From: Candidatus Omnitrophota bacterium
GTDB lineage: Bacteria > Omnitrophota > Gorgyraeia > Aquiviventales > Aquiviventaceae
Direction: 5' to 3'
NCBI GenBank assembly: GCA_023247255.1
Contig: JAHFGV010000002.1
Span: 33,835 to 97,834, forward strand
Length of the DNA stretch: 64,000 bases
In this document: positions 2,166 to 63,280 of the stretch, in pieces
How the letters are laid out: every line of letters begins with the position of its first letter
Numbering within the stretch: position 1 is the first letter of the stretch
The notes under the pieces: model-generated
What the model saw: only the letters and a program-made list of their open reading frames with translations
Told to the model about the DNA's origin: nothing
Database searches by the model: none
Position numbers and translations under genes: made by a program

Positions 2166-2862
2166 TCATATTGCGACCTTAAGGCAGGCCCGGAAAACTT
2201 CAAACCCGGATCCGAAAGATGCTGCTCGAATATGTGAGCAGGCCGGGGCCAGCAGCATCGTGTGTCATCTGCGGGAAGATCGGCGTCATATTCAAGACAC
2301 AGACGTTTGGCGACTGCGGCAGTCCATCACCACTCGCTTGAATCTGGAGATGTCTATCGCCAAAGGGATTGTCGCCATCGCCCTTGCGGTCAAACCCGCA
2401 CAGGTGACTCTGGTTCCCGAGCGTCGGCAGGAACTGACGACAGAAGGTGGCCTGGATATTGTCAATCTGCGGGGCCGTCTCAAGCGGGTGGTTCGAACGT
2501 TTCAGGAACGTGGGATTGAAGTCAGCTTATTTGTGGATCCCATCATCCGTCAGTTGCAAGCGGCGCAGGACCTAGGGGTTGAAATGATTGAGCTGCACAC
2601 GGGACGATATGCCGAGGCTTCAGCACCGCGTCTGCGTTTGCATCAGTTGAGGCAACTTTCCAAAGCGGCACAGGCAGCAAGGAAACTGGAAATTTCCGTC
2701 GCTGCAGGCCACGGTTTGGACTATGACAACGTCTCTGCGGTTGTCGAGATCCCTGAGATTGAGGAACTTAACATTGGCTATGCGATCATCAGGCGAGCGC
2801 TGTTTGTCGGTCTTCAGGATGCGGTCAGAGAAATGGTCGGGTTGGTTTCTGTCCCGTCATAG
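2143..2862 (+). CDS. pdxJ: pyridoxine 5'-phosphate synthase
   Basis: LGVNVDHIATLRQAR N-terminus and PdxJ TIM-barrel signature. Overlaps the folP end. ATG at 2143 fits the PdxJ N-terminus better than the ORF-track start 2113. Confidence 0.85.
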   Translation: MRLGVNVDHIATLRQARKTSNPDPKDAARICEQAGASSIVCHLREDRRHIQDTDVWRLRQSITTRLNLEMSIAKGIVAIALAVKPAQVTLVPERRQELTTEGGLDIVNLRGRLKRVVRTFQERGIEVSLFVDPIIRQLQAAQDLGVEMIELHTGRYAEASAPRLRLHQLRQLSKAAQAARKLEISVAAGHGLDYDNVSAVVEIPEIEELNIGYAIIRRALFVGLQDAVREMVGLVSVPS

Positions 2863-4455: not shown

Positions 4456-4650
4456 TATTTCTCGTCTTGCGAGAGGAATTGAAGGGAGCGCCGACTCAGT
4501 TTAAGGGCGCTGCGACGGGCAGGAGCAGCGACATTCCTTTGGAGGCGCGGGTGGCCGACCCGGAGCGAGTCGAAGACGAGCGGAGGGCGCCAATTCCTCT
4601 CGCCAGCTTATTTCTCGTCTTGCGAGAGGAATCGAAGGGAGCCGAGCCTT
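4436..4650 (+). repeat. tRNA-Thr 3'-end duplication module (52-nt direct repeats at 4436-4492 and 4591-4650 flanking a conserved 45-nt motif at 4546-4590)
   Basis: aattcctctcgccagcttatttctcgtcttgcgagaggaat[t/c]gaagggagc occurs twice. The second copy sits 155 nt downstream of the real tRNA 3' end. Confidence 0.7.
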
Positions 4651-4674
4651 CGGTCAATCAAGAGAGCCGAGGGA

Positions 4675-4752
4675 ATTGTCGATTGCCGATTTTCGATTGA
4701 ACGAAGGTTTTTCAATCGACAATCCAAAATCGACAATCGACAATTCCAAGGC
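4675..4752. repeat. palindromic TCGATTGTCGATT-family element
   Basis: ttgtcgattttcgattgaa ... ttcaatcgacaatccaaaatcgacaa inverted arms. Confidence 0.7.
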
Positions 4753-4782
4753 TGTTTCATGATCCCTTAGTCGAGGCGGGTG

Positions 4783-4843
4783 GCCGACCCGGAGCGAGTC
4801 GAAGACGAGCGGAGGGCGCCGATTCCTCTGGCCATCTGAGTTA
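4783..4843 (+). repeat. third copy of conserved 45-nt motif gcgggtggccgacccggagcgagtcgaagacgagcggagggcgcc plus degenerate tRNA-Thr 3' end
   Basis: Near-identical to 4546-4590. Followed by gattcctctggcca, a degenerate form of aattcctctcgccagc. Confidence 0.6.
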
Positions 4844-4915
4844 GCCTCACGAGGAGTTATGGTATGGTAGGAGTTCTTAGATATTCCAGTTCTGTGCGCT
4901 GATTGCTGTTCTTCA

Positions 4916-5001: not shown

Positions 5002-5180
5002 ATCGTTTTCAAGATATGCTTACATTTTGCCACAGGCCGGTATTTGTGAAGGGAACCCGTTTGTTCCTGCAAGAAGGGGAGGGTTCGAAGGCCGAACGCC
5101 CACCGCGTTCGGCATTCCGCGGCTGCCCCGATGACAGCCGCTGCAGGAGCCGAGCCGTCGATCAATCAAAAGAGCTGAAG

Positions 5181-5250
5181 GAATTGTCGATTTTCGATTG
5201 AATGAAGGTCTTTCAATCGACAATCCAAAATCGACAATTCCAACAGCTTG
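5181..5250. repeat. palindromic TCGATTGTCGATT-family element
   Basis: aattgtcgattttcgattgaatgaagg...ttcaatcgacaatccaaaatcgacaattcc. Confidence 0.7.
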
Positions 5251-5285
5251 TCACTTGTAACTTGCTACTTGTCACTATTCTTAAT

Positions 5286-6275: not shown

Positions 6276-6761
6276 ATGCCTGATTTCCTAGAGTCTGCAG
6301 GGGTTGTAGAGCCTGAACCCCCAAAGACTAAAAGTCCACAGGACCCAACTGAAAGGGAAGAGCACCCAGCTGAAATGAAAGCCTCAGCCGGGACCGGACG
6401 TCGCAAGACTTCCATTGCACGCGTGCGGCTCATTCCAGGTACTGGGACCATTACGGTGAATCATACGCCTTACGAACAATGGTTTCCGCGTGAGTCGCTG
6501 CGCTTGAGCATTCGGGAACCGTTGCTGCTCACACGGCAGATTGGAAGGTATGACGTTTTCGCAAACGTGAGCGGAGGCGGTTTAAGTGGCCAGGCCGGTG
6601 CCATTCGATTAGGCATTGCGCGGGCCCTCCTTCAACTCGATCAGACCAACCGCTCGGGATTGCGCAGCGGTGGATTCTTGACTCGTGATCCTCGGATGAA
6701 GGAACGTAAGAAATACGGTCGGAAAGGCGCTCGGAAGCGATTCCAGTGGACCAAGCGGTAA
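6276..6761 (+). CDS. rpsI: 30S ribosomal protein S9
   Basis: [12 protein letters not shown] through the C-terminal [11 protein letters not shown] tail. An alternative start at 6372 ([11 protein letters not shown]) would match the canonical 130-aa S9 length. Confidence 0.85.
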
Positions 6762-6796
6762 GGCAATCAATTTTCTGCACGAAATGTCTGCTGGTG

Positions 6797-7092
6797 TTAA
6801 GAGTGCGTCCCAGAATCTCCCGTGCCCTGCGCTGGGCCTAGCTGCGAGACCCGCAAGGCGCGAGGATCGCCGCGTACCAGCTCCTGCGGTACGCAAGCGA
6901 CGAGCAACGCCGCGGGACGACGCAGATCGGCCCAGCCAATGGGCAGACTCAGGGTTGCGGCGCCAGACGGCCATCTGCGGCGTCGCTTCTCCTCGACGTA
7001 CCACGGGGGGTACGCCGTCGTCGTCGCTCCTTGCATCTGGCCGTCTGGCGCCGCAACGCAGGGTACGCGAGATTCTGGGACGCACTCTAAGA
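6797..7092. repeat. structured ~300-bp element A with 24-bp terminal inverted repeats and internal 19-bp hairpin (family shared with 55492-55804)
   Basis: Terminal inverted repeat gttaagagtgcgtcccagaatctc / gagattctgggacgcactctaa. Internal stem gttgcggcgccagacggcc...ggccgtctggcgccgcaac. The core is homologous to element B, with compensatory stem changes. Confidence 0.65.
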
Positions 7093-7114
7093 TGACAGTT
7101 ACCAATCCTTATAG

Positions 7115-8152
7115 ATGTCCAAGCTGCGAATCGCCATTGCTGGGGCGACTGGATATGCGGGAGAAGAGCTTATCCGGATCCTTCAGCACCATCCCTTCGT
7201 TGAGCTTACCCAATTGGCGGCTTCAGCCAAATGGGACCGCCCAGTCCCATTAGCCGAAGTCTTTCCACGCTTTGCCCACCCACTGGACTTGGCGATTGAA
7301 TCCTACGATCCCCAAACGTTTGCCCAGAAAAGCGATATCGCTTTTCTGGTCCTGCCCCATGGACTCTCGATGGATTTAGTGCCTATCCTGCTCAGGGCTG
7401 GCCTTCGCGTGATCGATTTGGGAGGGGATTTCAGGCTCAAGGATCCATCGCTGTTCAACCAATGGTACGGCAGAGTTCACGGCCATCCGGAATTTCTGGC
7501 GGAGGCAGTCTATGGTCTGTCGGAGCTCAATCGAGAGTCTATTGCACAAGCTCGTTTAGTGGCCAATCCGGGGTGCTATGCAACGTCGGTTATCTTGGCC
7601 GTTGCCCCTTTGCTCCGTGCAGGGATGGTGGAACCGACCGGGATGATTGTGGATGCCAAGTCAGGGCTCACCGGGGCTGGGCGAAAGGCAGAGACATCCT
7701 TAATGTTTGCCGAGATGAATGAAAATCTGTGGGCCTATAAGGTCAATCACCATCAGCACCAGCCGGAGATTCAACAAGCGCTGCGGCCTTTCACGACAGC
7801 GCAGAAAATCTCTTTGTGTTTTGTTCCTCACGTCGTGCCGCTGAATCGGGGGATTTTTTCCACCATTTATCTGCGTCTGGCCCGGTCCTGTCGTTGGGAG
7901 GATATCGATTCCGTGTATCGGGATTTTTATCGAGACACCCCATTCGTGCGCATGCGTCCCGCGCAGTCCTGGCCCAAGGTGAGTGACGTGGCGGGCACGA
8001 ACTTTTGCGATCTGGCTTTTACCGTTGATACCGACCAGCGCTTGGTGGTGGTCGGCGCAGTGATCGATAACTTAACCAAAGGAGCTGCGGGCCAGGCCGT
8101 GCAGAATCTGAATCTTATGGCTGGCTGGTCCGAGACGATGGGTCTGTTGTGA
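7115..8152 (+). CDS. argC: N-acetyl-gamma-glutamyl-phosphate reductase
   Basis: MSKLRIAIAGATGYAGEELIRIL Rossmann N-terminus and the catalytic Cys region ANPGCYATS. Confidence 0.9.
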   Translation: MSKLRIAIAGATGYAGEELIRILQHHPFVELTQLAASAKWDRPVPLAEVFPRFAHPLDLAIESYDPQTFAQKSDIAFLVLPHGLSMDLVPILLRAGLRVIDLGGDFRLKDPSLFNQWYGRVHGHPEFLAEAVYGLSELNRESIAQARLVANPGCYATSVILAVAPLLRAGMVEPTGMIVDAKSGLTGAGRKAETSLMFAEMNENLWAYKVNHHQHQPEIQQALRPFTTAQKISLCFVPHVVPLNRGIFSTIYLRLARSCRWEDIDSVYRDFYRDTPFVRMRPAQSWPKVSDVAGTNFCDLAFTVDTDQRLVVVGAVIDNLTKGAAGQAVQNLNLMAGWSETMGLL

Positions 8153-22117: not shown

Positions 22118-22286
22118 TAAGGGTTCGTTAAGAAATAACTGCATCAATTTGATCGGGGGCTTTTGACTCATGGCTGCGTTGCTCATCGCTTACATCCTCG
22201 TCGCGGATGCTCGCTCTTCGCGCCTTGCCCTGAGTCAAAATCCCCAACGGCCAAATAGCGCAGTCATTTCTTAACGAACCCTAACC
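22118..22286. repeat. MITE-like element bounded by 25-bp inverted repeats taagggttcgttaagaaataactgc / gcagtcatttcttaacgaaccctaa
   Basis: Inverted repeat plus an internal ttgactca/tgagtcaa sub-palindrome. A left-half copy lies at 58714-58800. Confidence 0.6.
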
Positions 22287-23783: not shown

Positions 23784-23980
23784 ACCGCATTGTTGGGAAT
23801 TCTTGACCCCTTGCTTTCGGGACGTTGGCCATCGACAGGGTAAACGCAAATGCTCGATGGCCTGTGTTCTCGGAAGCAGGGGGTCTTGTGTTATAATCGA
23901 ACAACCGACGTATGGAAGACTGTTTCATGAAACCTGACACAATCCTCATTACTTCCCTTGGAATATGACACAGCATTCGA

Positions 23981-32328: not shown

Positions 32329-32873
32329 GGGGGTACCCGTGGTGTCTATCGTCGATTTTCGATTTTCGATTGTCGATTGAAAGCCATAGCGTTATCGATC
32401 GACGATCCACAATCCACAATCGACAATTCCATAGAGGTATCCGTGGTTTCACCATGATCGAGGTTCTCATCGCCTCAGTCATTGCTTCCATAGTCATCGG
32501 GGGAACGATGACAGCCTTTGTGACGGCAAGCCGGATGACGCGTCAGCAAAGCGGACCGGCCAATTCCGATGCCGCTTTGTATGTCCAGCAGCTTTTGGAG
32601 GCGATTCGCAATCACGTGGCTGCCGACTCGACATGGTTCAGCACAAGGGTCGGGCCGGTTCCCGCTACGTGGGCGGCTTGGCGAAACGATGATCCCCCAT
32701 TGTCGGCGTCCTGTCCCTCGGCATCTATCGTTTGCCGGACAGATGTGAACAATGGGCGGAAATATTTTATCACCTATGTCGACGACACCTGTGATGATGA
32801 CGGCGATACCAGTGATTGTTACTACGCCGTGACCGTGAGGGTCTGTTGGGATGAGCCGGCCTCGTCATGCTAA
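32301..32873 (+). CDS. type IV pilin-like protein (minor pilin, PilV/FimT-like)
   Basis: G|FTMIEVLIASV class III signal motif (Gly -1, Phe +1, Glu +5). No canonical start near the motif; the ORF reads through palindromic element 32345-32430. Confidence 0.6.
   Translation: MGRNMGQAMRGYPWCLSSIFDFRLSIESHSVIDRRSTIHNRQFHRGIRGFTMIEVLIASVIASIVIGGTMTAFVTASRMTRQQSGPANSDAALYVQQLLEAIRNHVAADSTWFSTRVGPVPATWAAWRNDDPPLSASCPSASIVCRTDVNNGRKYFITYVDDTCDDDGDTSDCYYAVTVRVCWDEPASSC
32345..32430. repeat. palindromic TCGATTGTCGATT-family element inside the pilin leader ORF
   Basis: cgattttcgattttcgattgtcgattgaaagccatagcg...cgacgatccacaatccacaatcgacaattcc. Confidence 0.7.
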
Positions 32874-33606
32874 ACAAGCGTATCCTTTTCGATTGTCGAT
32901 TGTCGATTTTCGATTGAAAGCCATAGCATTGCCAATCGACGATCCACAATCGACGATCGACGATTCCATTGTAGGTATGACTCTGATTGAGGTTATGGTC
33001 TCCCTGACGCTGGCGATGATCGTTCTGCTTGCGGTAACCAGCATCGATGTGACGCGGGTGCGGATTCACGAAGAGCTTCGTGATCGCTCAGGAATTGCAA
33101 CGCCGGAGCATGGGGAGGCTTCCTTGGCTGCTCTCTCTATAGAAAAAGACATCGAGCAGGCCGATCGGATCAATATCATTGCGGATGGCATTCAAGTGCG
33201 GATTCCCGATATGACGATCGCAGGATGTACGGGGACTGTTCCTGATGCCAGTTGCTTTGATGCTGCGGCCAACTACCGCTGGGACCAATACCGGCTTGAC
33301 GCTGACCAGCTGCTTTATTACCGCGGCACCCAAGTGGCCTGCCCCACTCCCACAGTGCTGGCTGAACAGATTGCGGATTTATCGTTTCAGTACGTGAATG
33401 AAGCCCCCGCTCCTCCTGGAGGCGATCCGGCAAACCAAGACAACAACCTGCTTGCCTACACGGTGAAATGGGATAACGCAGATGGGCTAAGCCATGAATT
33501 TCAGGGGGTGGTCAGTCTCAGAGCCTCTGCCTACACGGATGTTTCGACAGGGCTTCAGGCTCCCAATGGAACAGACATCAGTCCACCGCCTACGGTATGT
33601 TCGTAG
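32851..33606 (+). CDS. type IV pilin-like protein (minor pilin, PilW-like size)
   Basis: G|MTLIEVMVSLTLAMIVLL motif. The ORF reads through palindromic element 32886-32967. Confidence 0.6.
   Translation: MSRPRHAKQAYPFRLSIVDFRLKAIALPIDDPQSTIDDSIVGMTLIEVMVSLTLAMIVLLAVTSIDVTRVRIHEELRDRSGIATPEHGEASLAALSIEKDIEQADRINIIADGIQVRIPDMTIAGCTGTVPDASCFDAAANYRWDQYRLDADQLLYYRGTQVACPTPTVLAEQIADLSFQYVNEAPAPPGGDPANQDNNLLAYTVKWDNADGLSHEFQGVVSLRASAYTDVSTGLQAPNGTDISPPPTVCS
32886..32967. repeat. palindromic TCGATTGTCGATT-family element
   Basis: cgattgtcgattgtcgattttcgattgaaagccatagc...caatcgacgatccacaatcgacgatcgacgattcc. Confidence 0.7.
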
Positions 33607-34319: not shown

Positions 34320-34524
34320 GATAAATCAAACCCTTCCGATGAGTCACTTCTTGCTCAAGTGTATCCCGCAGCTTGGAGTGGGCGAGAAGCCGCCCGGTCA
34401 GAGGCGTGGTGGTTTGGGGATCAAACTGATCCACTTGAACGAGTAGCCACTCATCAGAGAATCTGCGACGTAACTTTTGGATGGGTTGACTCTGTTGACG
34501 TTTCATTAAAAATCTGCGCCGCAT
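34270..34524 (-). CDS. hypothetical small protein overlapping the protease gene by 50 nt (+1 frame)
   Basis: ORF only. Its 5' end overlaps the duplicated upstream block of fibre gene 1. No recognisable motif. Confidence 0.2.
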   Translation of the reverse strand: MRRRFLMKRQQSQPIQKLRRRFSDEWLLVQVDQFDPQTTTPLTGRLLAHSKLRDTLEQEVTHRKGLIYLVYGSDTLPQGYAAAF

Positions 34525-34525
34525 A

Positions 34526-34543
34526 CCCCGCCCATGGGTGGGG
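34526..34543. promoter_or_regulatory. near-perfect 18-bp palindrome ccccgcccatgggtgggg upstream of fibre gene 1 (candidate operator)
   Basis: Sits 48 nt before the ATG. A perfect copy ccccgcccatgggcgggg lies at 36623-36640 upstream of fibre gene 2. Confidence 0.45.
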
Positions 34544-34590
34544 AGGAGGCGCAGCCTTTTGATGCCAGCAGTATAACACGAGGTGAGGTT

Positions 34591-36198
34591 ATGTTCAATA
34601 CAGGTGTAAGCTTTCCCCGTCGGCGAGCAACCCGCACTGGTTTGCGAGTCACAAGCGACGAGCGACGAGCAACGATACGTGGGGTTTTTGTAACCATTCT
34701 ATATTTCTGTGGTGTGTTCCTCAGCCTTGCGCCTGCGACGGGGGCGGAAGACGTCACGGTGACGACCTACTACCCCTCTCCGCGCGGAGTCTACGATGAG
34801 CTGCGCACAACCGGCGATGTGAGAATTGGGACGACTTCTGCTCCTGCGGCACGGTTGCACGTGGTCCAGACAAACGCACAAAACGCCTTTCGGGTCGATG
34901 ATGCGAATCCAGATACGACCCCATTCGTCATCGATCAGAATGGCAATGTCGGGATCAAGACGGCAAGCCCTCTGGCTGATCTCCATGTACGAGATGACGC
35001 CGATATAGTAAATCTTCGTGTCACATCGGACAATGAGCGAGCCGGAATTTCTTTATTGTCAGACAATACCGGTGAAGTATTAATCTATACCGAAGACGGA
35101 TCAGATGATTTGCGCTTTCAGGTTGGTGGTACAGATCGTATGACTATTGAAAGTGCCGCTGCTGAGACAAGCATTACGGGTGAGCTAGGGATAGGGACGG
35201 CGAATCCAGAGAGTCCCTTACACATTGTCACTCCAGCTGGGTCCGGTATAAATGAAGTACGTCTTGAAGAGACAGGTGGATCTACCCTGAGTCTGAGCGC
35301 TGGAGGTGGAGTGACCAGGATTGCCTCTAGCGATAATCTACAGATAGAAGCTCCAGGAGGAACCACTCGTATGATCGTGTTGGGCACAGGCAATGTTGGT
35401 ATAGGCGCAGGGAACCCATTGTCCCGTCTCAGCGTAGGAGCTGATGGGTTCGCGGCAACGGCTATTTATGGAGAAAGTGGAGGAGCAGGATCGGGTGTGG
35501 CTGGAAAGGGGGGTGGAAGGGGAGTGGAAGGATGGGCGAGCCTAGGAGCGGGAGCTGTTGCGGGCGTAGCTGGTACTACCATCGATCCAGCGACAATTCC
35601 TGGGGGAGAAATTCCGAATGGTGCGGGTGTATTTGGTTATGGACATACCTATGGAATCCGGGCCGTAGCGACGGACGCCGGGGGCACAGGGGTTTATGGA
35701 AAAGGGCCGGCTTGGGCAGGGGATTTTATAGGCGATGTGCGTGTATCCGATGACCTCTTTGTTGGTAATGATGTAGATGTTCAGGGGGATATTTCGGTAA
35801 CGGGGAACATCACAGGCGATGTTTCAGAACATGTGGATTGTTCAGGGTGTGAAGCGACCGATGTGGTGGTGATCGATCCTGACCACGACCAGCGCCTGCG
35901 CCCATCCAGCAAGGCCTATGACTCGACGGTGGCCGGCGTGATTTCAGAGAAACCGTCTCTAAAGATCGGCGGCAGCCAATCCGAGATCGCCAAGCCCTTG
36001 GCGCTTGCCGGGCTGGTTCGTGTGAAAGCGACGACGGAAAACGGGCCGATTCATCGGGGGGATCTACTCGTGACTTCATCAAAGCCTGGGCATGCCATGC
36101 GGGCCGATCCTGATGCGATCAAACCAGGGATGCTGCTGGGCAAGGCGCTGGAGCCTCTTTCCGAAGGCGATGGGGCGATAGTGATCTTGGTGGAATGA
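34591..36198 (+). CDS. secreted fibre-like repeat protein, paralog 1 (tail-fibre-like NGNVGIGT repeats, Gly-rich core, conserved C-terminal module)
   Basis: Strong RBS gaggtgagg. Signal-anchor VFVTILYFCGVFLSLAPATGA. Repeats of the type L.VV.....AFRVDD..PDTTPFVIDQNGNVGI. C-terminal 115 aa are ~85% identical to paralog 2. Confidence 0.75.
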   Translation: MFNTGVSFPRRRATRTGLRVTSDERRATIRGVFVTILYFCGVFLSLAPATGAEDVTVTTYYPSPRGVYDELRTTGDVRIGTTSAPAARLHVVQTNAQNAFRVDDANPDTTPFVIDQNGNVGIKTASPLADLHVRDDADIVNLRVTSDNERAGISLLSDNTGEVLIYTEDGSDDLRFQVGGTDRMTIESAAAETSITGELGIGTANPESPLHIVTPAGSGINEVRLEETGGSTLSLSAGGGVTRIASSDNLQIEAPGGTTRMIVLGTGNVGIGAGNPLSRLSVGADGFAATAIYGESGGAGSGVAGKGGGRGVEGWASLGAGAVAGVAGTTIDPATIPGGEIPNGAGVFGYGHTYGIRAVATDAGGTGVYGKGPAWAGDFIGDVRVSDDLFVGNDVDVQGDISVTGNITGDVSEHVDCSGCEATDVVVIDPDHDQRLRPSSKAYDSTVAGVISEKPSLKIGGSQSEIAKPLALAGLVRVKATTENGPIHRGDLLVTSSKPGHAMRADPDAIKPGMLLGKALEPLSEGDGAIVILVE

Positions 36199-36604: not shown

Positions 36605-36622
36605 AAAAATCTGCGCCGCATA

Positions 36623-36640
36623 CCCCGCCCATGGGCGGGG
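36623..36640. promoter_or_regulatory. perfect 18-bp palindrome ccccgcccatgggcgggg upstream of fibre gene 2
   Basis: Sits 48 nt before the ATG at 36688, inside the duplicated ~340-bp block 36606-36950 (copy of 34508-34850). Confidence 0.45.
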
Positions 36641-36687
36641 AGGAGGCGCAGCCTTTTGATGCCAGCAGTATAACACGAGGTGAGGTT

Positions 36688-38367
36688 ATGTTCAATACAG
36701 GTGTAACAGGTGTAAGCTTTCCCCATCGGCGAGCAACCCGCACTGGTTTGCGAGTCACAAGCGACGAGCGACGAGCGACGATACGTCGGGTTTTTGTAAC
36801 CATTCTATATTATTTCTGTGGTGTGTTCCTCAGCCTTGTGCCTGCGATGGGGGCGGAAGACGTCACGGTGACGACCTACTACCCCTCCCCGCGCGGAGTC
36901 TACGATGAGCTGCGCACAACCGGCGATGTGGGGGTGGGGGTAACCGGTCCGGTACTCGGCAAGCTGCACGTGGTGCAGACTGCTATCGCTCCTGCCTTCC
37001 GTGTGGAGGATGAGGCTACTGCAACTGAGGTGACGCCTTTTTTGATTGATTTTGATGGAAATGTAGGTGCGGGTACCGGGGCCCCTGGGGCTAAGCTCCA
37101 CGTTGTGCAAGATAACGCTGCGAATGCATTTCGCGTGGATGATGAGGTTCCTCCGGATACCACGCCATTTCTGATTGACCAGAATGGCAGCGTAGGCATT
37201 CAAACAATACCTACAACCACATTGGAGATTGTCGATAACGATGCCAGTGGTGACTCGGTTGTAAAGATCGTCAGCGATGATACAGTCTCTGCCTTTCTTC
37301 AGTTTGTGTATGATGACGCGGTTGATCGGGACTGGAGGTTCTACATCAATGTGGATGGGAAATTGTACGTAGCAGATCAAACAGACGGCCTTAACGTGAT
37401 GATCTTTAATAATAATGGACGCGTGGGAATTGGAACAGATACCCCAGCAGCTGGTTTGGAGGTACAGCCATTTGTAGGGGTCACTGGTGTTAAGGGTGAG
37501 GGGGATGGGGCTGTGGGTGTGCATGGTGTGAGTAATAACAATGTAGGTGTTTTAGGTCAAAGTGCTACTGGTACTGGTATTGGGGTTTCTGGATCCTGCC
37601 CAGGCTGTCTTGGAGTCAAAGGGCAAGGTGCAACTGGTGTGGTTGGGGAGAGCACCAATGTGGGTGGTTTTGGCGTTTCCGGGCAGGTAGCCGATGGAAT
37701 TGGTGTTCAAGGTATCGTGACAGATGGAACTGGTGTTGTAGGTACCTCTACAAATGGTGTAGGAGTTATGGCTACAGGTGGGATTGGGTTTGGAGATGCG
37801 GGATTGATTGCTGAAGGAACAGACGGTGTTATAGCGACAGCAAAAGCAGTCGGAGGAGCTGGTATTCATGCGCTTGATGATGGTGATCCGGCCAGATTAG
37901 CTGGACGCTTTGATGGAGAAGTGGAAGTCAATGGATTGCTTGATGTGAATGGAAATATCGAAGTCAGTGGTAGTATTACCGGAGGAGACGTTGCAGAGTT
38001 TATGGACTGCGTTGGGTGTAAGCCAACCGATGTGGTCGTCATCGATACAGAGCACAATCGGTACGTAAAGCCATCCAGCCGGCCCTATGATTCGACTGTT
38101 GCTGGTGTCGTCTCAGAGAAACCTTCGCTTAAGATCGGAGGCAGTGACTCGGAAATCGCAAAGCCCTTGGCTCTGGCTGGCCTTGTGCGTGTAAAAGCGA
38201 CGACGGAAAACGGGCCTATCAAGCGGGGGGATCTGCTCGTAACTTCATCAAAGCCAGGCCATGCGATGCGGGCGGATCCGGAGCGGATCAAGCCTGGGAT
38301 GCTTTTGGGAAAAGCGCTGGAGCCACTTGAGGAAGGTGATGGAACGATTCTACTCCTTGTCGAGTAA
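36688..38367 (+). CDS. secreted fibre-like repeat protein, paralog 2
   Basis: First ~85 aa and last ~115 aa are near-identical to paralog 1. Divergent Gly/Val/Thr-rich core (GVxGxSTNGVGV repeats). Shares the CxGC plus DVVVID...YDSTVAGV...GDLLVTSSKPGHAMRA C-terminal module. Confidence 0.75.
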   Translation: MFNTGVTGVSFPHRRATRTGLRVTSDERRATIRRVFVTILYYFCGVFLSLVPAMGAEDVTVTTYYPSPRGVYDELRTTGDVGVGVTGPVLGKLHVVQTAIAPAFRVEDEATATEVTPFLIDFDGNVGAGTGAPGAKLHVVQDNAANAFRVDDEVPPDTTPFLIDQNGSVGIQTIPTTTLEIVDNDASGDSVVKIVSDDTVSAFLQFVYDDAVDRDWRFYINVDGKLYVADQTDGLNVMIFNNNGRVGIGTDTPAAGLEVQPFVGVTGVKGEGDGAVGVHGVSNNNVGVLGQSATGTGIGVSGSCPGCLGVKGQGATGVVGESTNVGGFGVSGQVADGIGVQGIVTDGTGVVGTSTNGVGVMATGGIGFGDAGLIAEGTDGVIATAKAVGGAGIHALDDGDPARLAGRFDGEVEVNGLLDVNGNIEVSGSITGGDVAEFMDCVGCKPTDVVVIDTEHNRYVKPSSRPYDSTVAGVVSEKPSLKIGGSDSEIAKPLALAGLVRVKATTENGPIKRGDLLVTSSKPGHAMRADPERIKPGMLLGKALEPLEEGDGTILLLVE

Positions 38368-42990: not shown

Positions 42991-43044
42991 TGCTAATGAC
43001 GTTTTCATTTACAAAGCCTGTCTCTGTGAGTTTTGGGCTTAACG

Positions 43045-43118
43045 AATTGTCGATTGCCGATGGATAGGATCTGGACGGTTTTCAATCCACAATCCAAAAT
43101 CGGTAATCGAAGATTCAA
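43045..43118. repeat. palindromic TCGATTGTCGATT-family element (upstream / 5' region of pilQ)
   Basis: cgaattgtcgattgccgatgg...ttcaatccacaatccaaaatcggtaatcgaag. Confidence 0.6.
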
Positions 43119-43194
43119 TGGACCGCTAGCCTTTAGCTGCCAGTCTCATTTATTCTTGAAACAAGCTCTAGCAGGCTGCGGGAAAACCCTTCGT

Positions 43195-45006: not shown

Positions 45007-45047
45007 GAGAAGAACTGAAGGTCGTGTTGTGTTTCAAGAGAAGTAAT

Positions 45048-45192
45048 AAGGATTGTGTCATGCTTTATGTGTCATGAGTCATGGAACGACAGCAGACATG
45101 GGAAGTCTTTCATGACACATAAAACATGACTCATGAAACAAACGTGAGTACTGGGTCTTAGAATCATGACTCATGAAACATGACACAAACGT
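45048..45192. repeat. 'catgacac' inverted-repeat element copy upstream of pilB
   Basis: gtgtcatgctttatgtgtcatgagtcatgg ... tcatgactcatgaaacatgacaca. Confidence 0.6.
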
Positions 45193-45218
45193 CGTTGTTT
45201 GAAGCTGAGGAAATCAAC

Positions 45219-48207: not shown

Positions 48208-48217
48208 AATCTGAGGA

Positions 48218-48305
48218 ATTTTCGATTGTCGATTTGCGATTGTCGATTGGAAAAAAGTTTTTGGCTGTGAATCGAGAATCCGGAATTGGCAATCGACGAT
48301 TCATC
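48218..48305. repeat. palindromic TCGATTGTCGATT-family element
   Basis: aattttcgattgtcgatttgcgattgtcgattgg...aatcgagaatccggaattggcaatcgacgattc. Confidence 0.65.
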
Positions 48306-48360
48306 AGTAAGTTATGACAACAGAAAGGAGGGAGAACACACATCAGAGATAGAATGTGGT

Positions 48361-48424
48361 ATTTTCGATTGTCGATGGGTTAGGATAGAAAGGTTTTTCA
48401 ATCGAAGATCTAAAATCGACAATA
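48361..48424. repeat. palindromic TCGATTGTCGATT-family element
   Basis: attttcgattgtcgatgg...ttcaatcgaagatctaaaatcgacaat. Confidence 0.65.
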
Positions 48425-48505
48425 ACTAAGTAGTGGTTTATTGTTCGGCTCATTGTTGAGGATGGCTTCTTAGACATGACAATAGGAAGAACCTAGGAGG
48501 AAACA

Positions 48506-51374: not shown

Positions 51375-51470
51375 TTCTTCCTGCTTTCCTCCTGCATGTT
51401 CAACCTCCCAGTTTTGTAGAAGCATAGGTATCTATGCTACAATCGTTCGAGCCGAAGTAGATTTGGAAGA

Positions 51471-51512
51471 CGGCTGTTCAATCGAAAATCGACAATCATC
51501 AATCGACAATTC
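51471..51512. repeat. half copy of palindromic TCGATTG-family element (right arm only)
   Basis: gacggctgttcaatcgaaaatcgacaatcatcaatcgacaattcc. Confidence 0.5.
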
Positions 51513-51616
51513 CATGGGGGAGACATCCCGCCCACCCGATCGTTGAAGCAAACCAACTGGGCCCATGCCTTCGGCTGTGGGCCCGATGGCGGGGAGGAGT
51601 CCCACAAGATGAGTTT

Positions 51617-51746
51617 GTGGCACTGATAACCTCTCCCCTCTCAAGGAATCATGAAACTGCCTTGGAATTTTCGATTGTCGATTTTGGATTTTCGATTGGA
51701 AGACGGCTGTTCAAACGAAAATCGACAATCGTCAATCGACAATTCC
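51617..51746. repeat. composite repeat: ~45-bp block plus palindromic TCGATTG-family element (near-duplicate of 58517-58646)
   Basis: gtggcactgataacctctcccctctcaaggaatcatgaaactgcc followed by ttttcgattgtcgattttggattttcgattggaagacggctgttcaaacgaaaatcgacaatcgtcaatcgacaattcc. Confidence 0.65.
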
Positions 51747-51889
51747 ACGGAATGAGTTTGTGGCATTCAAGAACACGCTCCGCGTGGGTCGACATCCCGC
51801 CCACCCATTGGCTGTTCTGCCGTGTCACCTACGGCTTTCGGCGTGGCGCAATGGCGGGGTCGAAATTAATTCGCGGAGGCAAAATTCTT

Positions 51890-51962: not shown

Positions 51963-52318
51963 TTTCTAAACGTCTTGGGGATCGAAGGGAGCCGAGCCTT
52001 CTTTCCTCAACGTCGCCGCGACTTATGGGAGCGGCGACAATCCACTTGGCGAGGCGAGTGCCCGACCGGAGCCCGAACGAAGTGAGGGCGAAGGCGGCGA
52101 TCCCCCTCTGCTCCATTTCTAGACGTCTTGGGGATCGAAGGTCAAGCGCCCGTCGCGCTCGACATTCCGCGGCTGCCACGATGGCAGCCGCTTCAGGAGC
52201 ACCGAGCCTTCGACCAATGAAGAGAGCCGAAGGAATTGTCGATTGATGATTGTCGATTTTCGATTGAACGAAGGTTTTTTAATCGACAATCCAAAATCGA
52301 CAATCGAAAATTCAAAAA
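51950..52318 (+). repeat. tRNA-Ala 3'-end duplication module (copies at 51950-51995 and 52097-52145; motif cccgaccggagcccgaacgaagtgagggcgaaggcggc) followed by palindromic element 52233-52312
   Basis: gatccccctctgctccatttcta.acgtcttggggatcgaagg is duplicated. Same architecture as the Thr and Gly modules at 4436-5612. Confidence 0.7.
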
Positions 52319-55393: not shown

Positions 55394-55491
55394 TACAAAA
55401 GTGTCAAGGGGGCATCCATCCCTATGAAGACAACAGTGGCCAACGCAAGTATAATACGATACCGTGTTTTTCATCGCATGCGAGTGATTCC

Positions 55492-55804
55492 TTAGAGCAC
55501 CTAACATAATGAAAACGTGACTGCGCTGGGATTAGATGCAAGCTGCGCAAGGCGCTCGCCCTTGACAAGCTTGTCAAGGGCGAGGAGGAAGGCATATCAT
55601 GCGGCAAGCGATATGGCGACGACGAGCAACGCAGCGAAGCGAAGCAGATAAGCCCAGCCCTTCGGGTTGCGGCAAAAACTGCCCATCTGCTGCGTCACTT
55701 CTTCTCTGCGTATCGCTAGCTTTACGCCATCGTCGTCGTTCCTTGCATCTGGGCAGTTTTCGCCGCAACGCAGCCATGTTTTCATTATGTTAGGTGCTCT
55801 TAGA
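55492..55804. repeat. structured ~310-bp element B with 25-bp terminal inverted repeats; homolog of element A
   Basis: Terminal inverted repeat cttagagcacctaacataatgaaaac / gttttcattatgttaggtgctcttag. Internal stem gttgcggcaaaaactgccc...gggcagttttcgccgcaac. The shared core gcgacgagcaacgc...cccagcc...atctgcggcgtc...tcgtcgtcg.tccttgcatctg...gccgcaacgcag matches element A. Confidence 0.65.
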
Positions 55805-55812
55805 AAGGACGT

Positions 55813-57369
55813 ATGGAGAAGATGGCAAAGGTAAGAGAAATCTTGATCAGCGCAGATGCGCAAGAGACGCGCGTTGCGGTCACCGAGGACAAGCGCCTTG
55901 AGGAATATTACGTGGAGCGCCCATCGGATAGTCGGATGGTGGGCAGCGTCTATAAAGGACACGTAAGTTCTGTGGTGCCTGGAATCAACGCGGCGTTTGT
56001 GGATATCGGGTTGGGGAAAAACGGTTTTCTCTATGTGTCCGATATCGTAGAGCCCAAGCCCGATGAAGAGGTAATCTTGGAAGGGGAAGTGTCTCCAGGG
56101 GTGTCACAGGCTGCAGGGGTGCATCGCGAGCGGCAACGTTCTGGAGCTCGCCATCAGAGGCACTCACGGATCGAGGACGTGGTTAAAAGCAATCAAGAGA
56201 TTCTGGTGCAGGTGGTTAAAGAGCCCTTCGGAACCAAAGGCGCTCGGCTGACGACCCATTTAAGCCTTCCCGGCCGCTACATGGTTTTGATGTGCAATGA
56301 CGCGCGGCTGGGAATTTCAAAACGGATTGAAGATCCGCAAGAGCGCAGCCGTTTGCGTGAAATACTTCCAAAACTGCGATTCTCGGAAGAAGCGGGACTC
56401 ATCATCCGGACCGCGGGGGTGGGCAAAACGGAGAAAGATTTTATCAGGGATGTCCGGTATCTATCCGGGATTTATCAGCGTCTCAAGCGACTCGGTGCCC
56501 GATCCAAAGCGCCGGCTTGTCTGTATCAAGAGTACGAATTACCCCAACGGGTCATCCGAGACAGCTTTACAGAGGATGTTCAACGCATCGTGGTGGATTC
56601 CAAAGGGGTGTTCCATCGGCTGCGACGATTTCTCAATGTGCTGATTCCCCGCGTCAGGGTTCGCATGGAATTGTACCGAGGAGAGGAACCTTTGTTTGAG
56701 GCGGTTGGGTTGGATGAACAGATCGCTGCTCTGTTTGATAAGCGGGTACAACTGCCCTCCGGAGGATCGATTATTGTGGAACCTACCGAGGGAATGGTTG
56801 CGGTTGACGTCAACACCTCTAAGTTTACTGGGCGCCGTAATCTTGAAGAAACGGCGTTTCAGGTTGATAAAGAGGCGGCCATTGAAGTGGCCCGCCAACT
56901 GCGCTTGCGTGATATCGGCGGCATCGTTGTGATCGACTTTATCGATCTGGATGTTGCCGCACACCGTCGAGAGCTGGTGAAAACGTTGGAACAAGCCTTG
57001 GTGCGTGATCGTGCCAAGACCAATCTCGTTTCTTTTTCTGAGATCTGCGTTGCAGAACTGACACGCCAGCGCATGCGGCGTTCCGTTGAGACCGTAAGCT
57101 ATCAAAGCTGCCCCTATTGTAACGGGCGGGGAACAGTCAAGTCCGTTCAGACAATGGCCATCGAAGCCATCCGTCAGGCCAAGCGCGCCCTTAAGAATAT
57201 CCAGCATAAGACCCTGGAATTGCTGGTGCATCCTCAGGTGGCCGTCCGGCTGCTTCAAGAGGACCGACCCAGCTTGACTACGTTGGAGAATCAGAGTCAT
57301 TCTAAAATCCTTGTGCTGTCCGATCCCAGCTTGCACGTCGAGCAGATCAAAGTCCAGGTATCGGGCTAG
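55813..57369 (+). CDS. rng: ribonuclease G (RNase E/G family catalytic domain)
   Basis: S1 domain, DNase-I-like region, and GGIVVIDFIDL Mg-binding motif. At 518 aa it is RNase G sized. Confidence 0.85.
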   Translation: MEKMAKVREILISADAQETRVAVTEDKRLEEYYVERPSDSRMVGSVYKGHVSSVVPGINAAFVDIGLGKNGFLYVSDIVEPKPDEEVILEGEVSPGVSQAAGVHRERQRSGARHQRHSRIEDVVKSNQEILVQVVKEPFGTKGARLTTHLSLPGRYMVLMCNDARLGISKRIEDPQERSRLREILPKLRFSEEAGLIIRTAGVGKTEKDFIRDVRYLSGIYQRLKRLGARSKAPACLYQEYELPQRVIRDSFTEDVQRIVVDSKGVFHRLRRFLNVLIPRVRVRMELYRGEEPLFEAVGLDEQIAALFDKRVQLPSGGSIIVEPTEGMVAVDVNTSKFTGRRNLEETAFQVDKEAAIEVARQLRLRDIGGIVVIDFIDLDVAAHRRELVKTLEQALVRDRAKTNLVSFSEICVAELTRQRMRRSVETVSYQSCPYCNGRGTVKSVQTMAIEAIRQAKRALKNIQHKTLELLVHPQVAVRLLQEDRPSLTTLENQSHSKILVLSDPSLHVEQIKVQVSG

Positions 57370-57541
57370 TGCTCCGTCTACATCGAACGGATGGATAGTC
57401 CGCTGCAATTCATCGCCTACTTTATTGATGCTCGCGCAATTGTATGACAGGCTTCACCGTCGATAAATACTGTCATACTGATTTGCGAGACTCAATAGTA
57501 TCGGCAACCCGTCATTTCAATCTGGCTGGAGATCTGCTGGA
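57370..57541. repeat. second copy of the 30322-30410 repeat, with ~70-bp internal insertion
   Basis: gtgctccgtctacatcgaacggatggatagtccgctgcaattcatcgcctac ... agtatcggcaacccgtcatttcaatctggctggag. Confidence 0.55.
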
Positions 57542-57894
57542 GTGTGGGACCGCTCGTGGCAACAGTGCTGTCCTGATGGGACCAGCGCTTAAACAAATGG
57601 GTGATCGCCGTCGGCTCTGGGTTTTGATATGAGAGCGTCAAGACCTGTTTGGATTGCCTCTATGATTGGGTCAGTCCGGGATGAGTGATTCAGATCGATG
57701 ATTACGGCCATTGGCAGAGGGCTCGGAAAGCGGTGGATGACTTTCTTAAGCAGCGTTCAATGACTATCCCACTGCGCTGGCTTGATTATACTGGACGACA
57801 ATGGGGCAAATCTTGAAAAACCCTTGACCGGACACGAGGATTCAGCCAAAATAGAGCCTACTTTTTGACGCCATATAGATGAGGGAATAGGCTC

Positions 57895-58227
57895 ATGTAC
57901 GCTATTGTTGAAGTGGGAGGAAGACAGTGGAAGGTAGAATCAGGAACACATTTGGATATCAATCGTGTTTCCTTTGAGGTGGGGGCAAGACACACCCTGG
58001 AGCATGTGTTGTTCGCACGGCAAGAGGAACAGGTGCATATTGGACATCCTTACGTGCCCAATGCTCAGGTTGTTTGTGAAGTACTTGAGCATCGGCTGGG
58101 TCCTAAGGTCGTTTCCTATCACTACCGGCGACGAGAGAACTGGCGCAAGACCGTGGGACATCGTCAACCATTGACCCGGTTGGTCGTGAAAGAGATTAAA
58201 ATCGGTTCAATGGCTCCTCGGCAGTAG
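57895..58227 (+). CDS. rplU: 50S ribosomal protein L21
   Basis: MYAIVEVGGRQWKV is a canonical L21 N-terminus. Confidence 0.9.
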   Translation: MYAIVEVGGRQWKVESGTHLDINRVSFEVGARHTLEHVLFARQEEQVHIGHPYVPNAQVVCEVLEHRLGPKVVSYHYRRRENWRKTVGHRQPLTRLVVKEIKIGSMAPRQ

Positions 58228-58265
58228 GCAGTAAGCAGCAATAGTAAACAGTAACAGGTGAAACG

Positions 58266-58511
58266 ATGGCGCATAAAGCAGGTGCTGGGTCGACAAAGAA
58301 TGGACGTGATAGCTGTGGAAAACGGCTGGGTGTGAAGTGCTACGCAGGACAGAAGGTTTCAGCAGGATCAATCCTCGTGCGGCAACGGGGAACACCGTTT
58401 AAACCAGGATGGTTCGTCGGAACTGGAAGCGATTGGACCCTCTATGCCGAGATTGATGGAATTGTCCGCTTTCCAAAACCTCGCGTGGTCAGTGTGGAGC
58501 CCCAGGGGTAG
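58266..58511 (+). CDS. rpmA: 50S ribosomal protein L27
   Basis: [16 protein letters not shown] is a canonical L27 N-terminus. Confidence 0.9.
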
Positions 58512-58516
58512 AGCCC

Positions 58517-58646
58517 GTGGCACTAGTAACTTCTCCCTTGCCAAGGCATCATGAAACTACCTTTGAATTTCCGATTTTCGATTTTGGATTGTCGATTGAA
58601 AGACCTCTGTTTAATCGAAAATCGACAATCGTCAATCGACAATTCC
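58517..58646. repeat. composite repeat (duplicate of 51617-51746)
   Basis: gtggcactagtaacttctcccttgccaaggcatcatgaaactacc plus a palindromic TCGATTG-family element. Confidence 0.65.
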
Positions 58647-58713
58647 TTGAGCCCTCTTGTAGTGAAGGCCGTGGCGCAATGGTGGGGTTGAGCCAGCCCC
58701 TACCAGTGGCTAA

Positions 58714-58875
58714 GGGTTCGTTAAGAAATAACTGCATCCATTTGACCAGGGGCTTTTGACCCATGGCTGCCTTGCTCATCGTTTACATCCTCATCAAGGA
58801 TGGAAGCGTATCCATTCGATACTGAAAGCTCAGTAGGCCCAGCGCAGGGCACGGGAGATTCTGGAACGCACTCTT
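58714..58875. repeat. left half of the 22118-type MITE followed by a 45-bp motif identical to the element-A terminus
   Basis: ggctaagggttcgttaagaaataactgcatccatttgaccaggggcttttgac...; then gcccagcgcagggcacgggagattctggaacgcactcttag, the reverse complement of 6797-6841. Confidence 0.55.
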
Positions 58876-62285: not shown

Positions 62286-62442
62286 GTACTCCTGTGTCAA
62301 GACCCACTTGCATTGATGCTGGAAGCTGAGCATGTGAGTGAAGGTATGCGTCGAGCAATACCCTCAAGATTCTGGAATAATTTCTAGAGCTTGGTGATGA
62401 CTGAGGTTTTGCAAAATGCATCGAGATTAGTGGCAGCGCTCA

Positions 62443-62625
62443 CGTCTGTGTCATGAGTCATGGAAAGCAAAAGGCGTACTTTGGCCGTGCTTGAGATGCC
62501 TGTTTATTTTCTGCTTTTTCATGACAGATGACTCATGAAACATGACACAATCCTCATTACTTCTCTTGGAATAGGACACAACACTCGGTCAACGCGTTGG
62601 CTATTTTTGCAAGAGCCCAGTGATG
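62443..62625. repeat. 'catgacac' element copy, inverted relative to 864-1010
   Basis: gtgtcatgagtcatggaaagcaaaagg...ctgctttttcatgaca...catgaaacatgacaca, followed by tgttggctatttttgcaagagcccag, the reverse complement of 865-890. Confidence 0.6.
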
Positions 62626-63221: not shown

Positions 63222-63280
63222 TTCGAATTTTCGATTGTGGATTGTCGATTGTGGATTGTCCGTTCGATCAATCCGCATTC
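63222..63280. repeat. palindromic TCGATTG-family element (TGGATTG variant)
   Basis: ttcgaattttcgattgtggattgtcgattgtggattgtccgttcgatcaatccgcattcc. Confidence 0.6.

Follow-up and report, generated by a model that had tools for sequence, protein, structure and literature searches.

We analysed a stretch of 64,000 nucleotides (hereafter the window) from a Candidatus Omnitrophota bacterium (contig JAHFGV010000002.1 of GenBank assembly GCA_023247255.1), in which two elements of about 300 bp, A and B, stand directly upstream of argC and rng, respectively. Element A is 287 bp long (6801..7087, plus strand), lies between rpsI (6276-6761) and argC (7115-8152) and has the ends GAGTGCG...CGCACTC; element B is 305 bp long (55495..55799, plus strand), lies between a hypothetical gene and rng and has the ends GAGCACC...GGTGCTC (GAGCACCTAAC...GTTAGGTGCTC). 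A first-pass annotation of the window had placed both elements correctly to within a few bases, and all the blocks that it named between the terminal inverted repeats are found in A and in B in the same order, namely GACGAGCAACGC, GCCCAGCC, the stem GTTGCGGC...GCCGCAAC and ACGCAG. The two cores have a mean column identity of 78% in pairwise alignment, and within the window these conserved blocks are confined to A and B.

The left terminal repeat of A, GAGTGCGTCCCAGAATCTCC (6801..6820, plus strand), is complementary to the right one (7068..7087, plus strand). The terminal repeats pair without a mismatch for 20 nt in A and for 23 nt in B and continue inward with few mismatches, giving closing inverted repeats of 20-26 bp overall (13-34 nt in other copies of the family). 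Immediately outside them lie 3-bp direct repeats, TAA for element A (6798..6800 and 7088..7090, read from the sequence, with a single TAA in relatives) and TTA for element B (55492..55494 and 55800..55802). These flanking repeats were not part of the first-pass annotation, and neither were the inverted relationship between the two halves of each element nor the related elements at 22121-22281 and 58714-58873, all of which are described below.

Both elements are predicted to fold strongly, with RNA folding z-scores of -10.3 to -13.1 on either strand against dinucleotide shuffles (-11.6 to -13 for element A) and DNA folding z-scores of -10.0 and -11.6 against shuffles, so that the DNA fold is as significant as that of RNA. 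In the 19-bp stem, which the first-pass annotation had taken to be fully complementary in both copies, the arms of A (6954-6972 and 7039-7057) pair throughout, whereas those of B (55666-55684 and 55751-55769) are interrupted by a single A.C mismatch; the annotation's count of eight differences among 11 variable positions has to be corrected to seven on the 5' arm and six on the 3' arm of the variable 11-nt segment. Hairpin 1 (6872-6878 with 6888-6894 in A) is compensated between the two elements just as had been described.

Filled and empty insertion sites

The gene order rplM-rpsI-argC-argJ-argB-argD is kept in three related Omnitrophota (loci L184, L186 and L188), in which the spacer between rpsI and argC measures 62, 57 and 29 bp, against 353 bp in the window, and from which element A is absent. 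The spacers of L184 and L188 contain TG(T/A)TAAGATGACA, which is the left flank of A in the window (...GGTGTTAA) and its right flank (GATGACAG...) joined on one TAA, and L186 has a diverged version, TGATACCATGACA. At the second site, the spacer 5' of rng is 100 and 48 bp long in two relatives (L192 and L193) that do not have B, against approximately 420 bp in the window. The nearest named homologues of the two downstream genes both belong to Candidatus Omnitrophota (ArgC 70% identical, Rng 82% identical).

Element B has a promoter-like site (55427-55455) on its 5' side and the GAAAGGA ribosome-binding site of rng on its 3' side, and its insertion point is bracketed by a TATAAT promoter-like box, the block GAGTGATTC and this ribosome-binding site. 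The closer relative, L192, retains the TATAAT box, GAGTGATTC and GAAAGGA, and in L193 only the TATAAT box is clear. As these flanking blocks are kept in relatives without the element, B landed in the 5' untranslated region of rng, with only a few bases left between it and the downstream ribosome-binding site. A and B are insertions accompanied by a 3-bp target duplication, TAA for the one and TTA for the other.

In assemblies obtained independently from the same population, contigs break at element edges or where the conserved core has its boundary, as is expected of a repeat, and two contigs (L190 and L191) begin at the edge of B or at its core boundary. L190 is 99.9% identical to positions 55491-58682 of the window and then continues into a different locus, with a Mfd-like gene, in place of the chimeric element and obg found in the window. 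The break falls directly after a copy of an abundant hairpin repeat with the unit ATTGTCGATT, and the divergence is explained by a structural variant or else by an assembly that is chimeric at repeats.

A dispersed family built from two inverted modules

These elements belong to a new family of MITEs (miniature inverted-repeat transposable elements) that has IS5/IS1031-like ends and is absent from Rfam. Scanning one genome per species with an 18-base stem pattern returned more than 114 stretches, about 50 of which are true members and the rest chance matches, and a type-1 pattern returned 62 metagenome stretches. A covariance model, R1, built on the right-hand module gave 90 full-length module matches in 90 loci at E <= 1e-13, and the copies of the family number more than 90 in all. 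The hosts of the true members are Omnitrophota, Planctomycetota (Planctomycetales and Phycisphaerales), many Acidobacteriota and some unclassified metagenome-assembled genomes, with at least 4-8 copies per genome among the matches listed. Neither a type-1 nor a type-2 element had a match among 72,556 plasmids (blastn), and four patterns run against viral contigs gave only chance matches in coding sequence and zero model matches. Rfam gave no gathering-score match, either on the window's elements or across 18 related loci, and at E<=10 the element drew only chance matches to microRNA hairpins. Neither the motif string nor the subject of covarying MITEs led to a description of the family in the searchable literature.

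The elements are non-coding: among 30-32 aligned copies the insertions and deletions are of 1-2 nt, are not multiples of three and leave no conserved frame, and the open reading frames (ORFs) that span A (6784-7095 and others) were rejected as genes on the same grounds. Several other readings of the conserved blocks (Shine-Dalgarno and start codon, sigma-54 site, attC-like site, dif-like site, bridge RNA, ribozyme) were rejected by eye, the spacing being inconsistent or defining features missing.

The ends are of several types. TNA followed by GAG(C/T)... is the type to which A and B belong; others have TA followed by GAACCGG..., GAGTTGG... or GGCTCC..., and in Acidobacteriota CTAG followed by CAGCC... 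is found. Identical TNA flanks are present in 13 of the 20 copies with GAG(C/T) ends (A, B and 11 others), most of the remainder differing by one base, and 27 further copies have TA on both sides.

Each full element consists of a terminal repeat, an inverted module, a short central hairpin, a second module and a terminal repeat, the two modules being homologous, about 120 nt each and in inverted orientation. In A and B the left half, once reverse-complemented, aligns to the right half as a diverged copy of it; reverse-complemented left halves likewise align to right halves in other copies, and the left halves of many elements match the module model on the opposite strand with 45-72 bits. The right module of A (6925..7062, plus strand) scores 109.6 bits against R1 (E 9e-21) and that of B (55652..55774, plus strand) 104.3 bits (E 1e-19), both including the 19-bp stem. 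The left module of A (6836..6933, minus strand), within which hairpin 1 lies, scores 20.9 bits (E 0.026). The left module of B carries an extra palindrome, CTCGCCCTTGACAAGCTTGTCAAGGGCGAG (55555..55584, plus strand), at a position that is a gap in A and in all other aligned copies.

Across 87 distinct copies of the module, 91.2% of the cells at paired positions are standard pairs, against 33-43% when the partners are slid by 1-3 columns; changes on both sides of the pair are seen in 21 of the 36 pairs (403 cells), and none of 500 shuffles matched any of the observed pairing measures. An alignment-independent check on 32 full-length type-1 copies gave 82 consensus pairs that are 93% Watson-Crick, with covariation in the closing stem, the stems of the left domain, hairpin 1 and the long stem. 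The proposal of a structured family under compensatory change is therefore borne out, including on the further copies by which the first-pass annotation had asked it to be judged. Other features of the fold do not vary: a tandem U.C/C.U mismatch in CCAUCUGC/GCAUCUGG is invariant, as are the CUCCU and CGUCG loops, and an A.C mismatch in the apical hairpin is invariant save for its replacement by C-G in two copies. In type-1 copies the right module is on average 79% identical, against 51-54% for the terminal repeats.

The stems remain complementary despite sequence change, and several mismatches and loops do not vary, from which we infer that one strand folds on itself and that something reads the fold. 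This constraint on a folded single strand does not imply a service to the neighbouring gene, and the strand may be RNA or single-stranded DNA. Inside the module, G.U (41) is about as frequent as A.C (35, with one conserved A.C site excluded), each making up ~1-1.3% of cells, a parity that indicates no strand preference, unlike typical RNA families.

The window holds, in addition to the two full copies, two related copies. One is a one-module relative of 161 bp between panC and panD (22121..22281, minus strand) with ends GGGTTCGTTAAGAAAT... and TTA on both flanks (22282-22284 and 22118-22120), which carries the blocks of the left-type module (CTGCGCT, GCAAGGCGCGA, a hairpin and GCGATGAGCAACGCAGCC); other one-module versions are found in L053, L126, L025 (7041-7215) and L065 (1960-2140). 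The second is a chimeric copy of 160 bp, 14-17 nt upstream of obg (58714..58873, minus strand; flanks TAA and TTA), in which an A-type left end, 98% identical to 6798-6840, is joined to a right end of the 22121-22281 type. Chimeric terminal repeats are also present in copies L141 and L180, and truncated copies exist. A and B have each entered a short spacer in a string of housekeeping genes with duplication of a TNA trinucleotide; the family, which spans at least three phyla, is multi-copy, dispersed and recently active, and recombination has taken place between subfamilies.

The chimera in the window sits between CCAGTGGC and GCCACTGG, themselves inverted repeats, and could be the product of recombination between two insertions, or else of an insertion into a palindrome. 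Family copies in L048 (~2600-2700, minus strand) and in L103 (3160-3330) are cut short precisely at a CTAG, which in one case belongs to the apical loop of an adjacent copy; truncation at this very tetranucleotide suggests that CTAG is both a target and a hotspot for secondary events. In L025, inverted copies of another CTAG-ended MITE of ~170 bp (4679-4846 and 6877-7044) flank a 2-kb segment with methyltransferase-like and epimerase-like genes, in the manner of a composite transposon, and this pair abuts the one-module family member at 7041-7215, CTAG being common to both.

Mobilisation of the family and what its fold may serve

We regard it as probable that both elements represent a DNA transposon of the non-autonomous kind, a MITE mobilised in the manner of IS5, and that the fold serves the element itself. 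The ends of IS1031-group elements begin with GAG and their direct repeat is of 3 bp (ISfinder table). Element A, element B and 11 other copies have both GAG ends and a 3-bp TNA duplication, the combination that marks this group. A 3-nt target has been reported for the IS1031 group of the IS5 family (PMC2516522). The A/B family would accordingly be moved in trans by an IS5-family DDE transposase that recognises the outer part of the terminal repeats, and the IS1031-, IS427- and ISL2-like groups would fit best, given the ends starting with GAG, the 3-bp TNA or 2-bp TA duplications and the CTAG-type targets. From each end inward there is a terminal repeat and then a module of ~120 nt, an arrangement in which the whole element would be two extended, diverged ends fused together. 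We prefer to see the fold as a cis-acting feature of the element, adopted by single-stranded DNA, by an extruded cruciform or by a read-through transcript, which may keep master copies able to spread or allow them to be tolerated within operons, and which would not serve the neighbouring host gene. The argC and rng messages would then each carry a very stable fold of ~290 nt just upstream of their start codons.

A different MITE of ~259 bp lies in the window between ftsH and folP (854-1112; ends GAGTGCCTAAC.../...GTTAGGCACTT; flanks TAA/TAG). Its terminal repeat is similar to that of B and its interior is unrelated and rich in TTTCATGACAC motifs, which suggests that one type of transposase moves several cargoes in this genome. 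Pieces related to this MITE are found at ~45014-45199, 62400-62621 and 23926-23978.

Several results weigh against mobilisation of this kind. Pfam identified no transposase among 30 ORFs of the window, and neither a search with right-end 14-mers to 8 kb nor a scan for the terminal-repeat motif found a larger element with matching ends in any locus. A general scan for inverted repeats flanked by TA or TNA and 0.5-2.6 kb apart returned only the pair of other MITEs around two genes in L025, and no ORF in the ~1.3 Mb of fetched DNA carries the IS4/IS5 Y-R-E-K signature as defined by a strict regular expression. The interior is conserved across phyla and the terminal repeats are diverse even within this genome, which is a poor fit with recognition of the repeats by their sequence. 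In the full-length type-1 copies, G.U pairs (77) exceed A.C (22), mostly at three positions of the junction helix; this could point to one strand, and possibly to RNA, or the excess may go back to a few inherited events. A transposase gene adjoining rplM on its upstream side in L184 (288-1517; 409-aa DDE transposase with weak IS66, ISL3 and Mutator matches) was considered as a partner and dropped, as its own ends, AGCGTCCCATTAACTGTTG, are unrelated.

Part of this evidence would be accommodated if the module were a mobile non-coding RNA gene or RNA signal that uses transposon ends as its vehicle and whose fold acts in RNA, for example as a site for RNase III or other processing, as an mRNA stabiliser or insulator or as a protein ligand, the inverted pair of modules ensuring one sense copy in either direction of transcription. 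The multi-helix structure with loops and mismatches invariant across three phyla, the better conservation of the core than of the ends and the excess of G.U just mentioned would all be understandable. All five MITE insertions of the window lie inside strings of co-directional genes, so that they must be transcribed or at least not block transcription; the operons concerned (rpsI-argC, rng, panCD, rpmA-obg and ftsH-folP) are essential ones, in which the start codons are no more than 10-25 nt away. No terminator-like site is present, and transcription of bcr1 and similar repeats is documented (PMC3184786). We nevertheless judge an RNA signal unlikely: not one Rfam family matches, permissive thresholds included, G.U and A.C are about equally rare in the module, the left module is far more diverged than the right, no promoter (nor any terminator) is conserved within the element, and the orientation of the family copies to the downstream gene is unbiased, with 40 in the same and 40 in the opposite direction according to crude gene calls. 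Improbable to a greater degree is a structure-specific mobility in which an enzyme similar to the TnpA of IS200/IS605, the REP-associated RAYT or the integron integrases reads the folded module on single-stranded DNA and cuts at the base of the outer stem, TNA or TA being a recombination core and not the product of a staggered cut. An outer stem that is complementary but almost free in sequence next to a conserved module, invariant hairpin mismatches of the sort that such enzymes read, stems that are Watson-Crick on both strands and the failure to find a DDE partner in the window or in the fetched DNA are all in keeping with it. Yet the clean duplication of a pre-existing trinucleotide and the G...C ends are a classic DDE signature, the terminal repeats are still homologous (GAGYNCCTAACA-like) and common to the MITE with unrelated cargo in the same genome, partly non-complementary chimeric repeats exist, and no Y1/HUH or recombinase gene recurs near the copies.

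Two further explanations tie the fold to a host function and have little to recommend them. The first-pass annotation had proposed a structured small RNA or 5' leader, in particular an autoregulatory 5' untranslated region of rng analogous to the rne leader, next to a cruciform-dependent mobile element; a mobile element that depends on its fold comes close to the evidence, and the leader does not. That A and B are directly upstream of plus-strand genes, with B downstream of a promoter-like site and ahead of the ribosome-binding site of a gene of the RNase E/G family, would agree with gene-specific cis-regulatory leaders of rng and argC. The observation about plus-strand genes is correct but means little in this window, where only one of the 57 large non-overlapping ORFs is not on the plus strand. 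Leaders of this kind are very improbable, since relatives with 82% identical Rng (L192 and L193) and ~70% identical ArgC lack the elements at the orthologous sites, target duplications flank both A and B, and the element occurs beside dozens of unrelated genes in either orientation, ORF clustering having found no recurrent neighbour gene at the copies and only spurious ORFs across the elements. We give still less credence to a retron-like msr/msd RNA or another template for a reverse transcriptase. Outer inverted repeats do enclose a multi-hairpin RNA of ~290 nt with a 5' domain and a long 3' hairpin, but there is no reverse transcriptase beside A or B and none recurring near other copies, and the many copies per genome, the target duplications and the empty sites speak against it.

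It is conceivable, although we would not expect it, that the mobility machinery or another trans-acting factor recognises the module, folded as a single strand, and not the terminal repeats, so that the family would represent a cross-phylum class addressed by structure. If this were true, the terminal stems would need only complementarity, and the invariant U.C/C.U and A.C mismatches would be a recognition code; equivalently, the module would be a mobile structured RNA or DNA signal.

Related repeats and meaning of the family

Closest in kind to the A/B family are bacterial MITEs with IS5-type ends. MITEs derived from IS5 (IS1031, IS427 and ISL2 groups; the eukaryotic counterparts are the Tourist MITEs of PIF/Harbinger) are likewise non-coding elements of ~160-310 bp with terminal inverted repeats, TNA or TA duplications and ends beginning with G (GAG), and are multi-copy and intergenic, with filled and empty sites and with chimeric and truncated copies. 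They differ in that no parent insertion sequence with matching ends was found for the A/B family in the window or in the fetched DNA, that this family conserves its interior and not its terminal repeats across three phyla, and that the interior is a covarying multi-helix fold of two inverted modules. Correia elements of Neisseria and ERIC elements of Enterobacteria give transcripts that fold into long hairpins and can change mRNA processing or stability. These are also MITEs with TA-containing duplications that lie near genes and within operons and form RNA hairpins, but they are single hairpins of 100-160 bp made mainly from the terminal repeats, without a conserved branched interior, and each is restricted to one genus or family. 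PMC3184786 lists both kinds.

Conceptually closest is bcr1 of the Bacillus cereus group, a dispersed and transcribed repeat with flanking direct repeats and two stem-loops kept by compensatory changes (PMC3184786). It shares with our elements a MITE-like dispersal, short flanking direct repeats, a predicted cruciform-like fold and two independent stem-loops with compensatory changes. On the other hand, bcr1 is ~155 bp long with a 5-bp direct repeat, is found in one species group and has no evident sequence relationship to the A/B family, which spans phyla, has long closing repeats and has domains that are inverted copies of one module; in addition, transcription is documented for bcr1. REPINs (REP doublets moved by RAYT) and the palindromic elements of IS200/IS605 resemble it as inverted hairpin doublets that drift but stay complementary and whose single-strand folding is recognised. 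Those systems have 20-40 nt units, no target duplication and no long terminal repeats, as opposed to modules of ~120 nt with duplications, and they have a GTAG or CGTC tag and an associated RAYT or TnpA gene, neither of which is seen in the A/B family.

The window, which consists almost entirely of housekeeping operons (arg, dap, pan, fol, ribosomal proteins, and type II secretion or pilin-like genes), contains other repeats as well. The palindromic repeat of ~75 nt encountered above at the break of L190, with ATTGTCGATT / AATCGACAAT units, is present at at least 14 sites in the window, often after tRNA or other genes, for example at 4642-4768, 5150-5252, 32345-32434, 32882-32971, 43037-43121, 48215-48437, 51441-51750, 52202-52318, 58560-58660 and 63224-63269, and seems to be a repeat family of its own, of REP-like or hairpin type. 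Two tandem paralogous ORFs (34534-36198, 554 aa, and 36631-38367, 578 aa), which have no Pfam match, are 95-99% identical in their 5' regions (34508-34830 and 36605-36939).

The importance of the A/B family lies mainly in annotation. It accounts for long, GC-rich, highly structured "intergenic" stretches and for contig breaks in metagenome-assembled genomes of Omnitrophota, Planctomycetota and Acidobacteriota, and it should be masked before searches for regulatory RNAs, in which it gives very strong but misleading covariation signals. It also reverses the usual pattern of MITEs, the folded interior being conserved and the terminal repeats free-running, and it therefore offers a tractable case for asking what selects the interior of a MITE and how polycistronic messages tolerate insertions of ~300 nt whose folding energies are near -190 kcal/mol.

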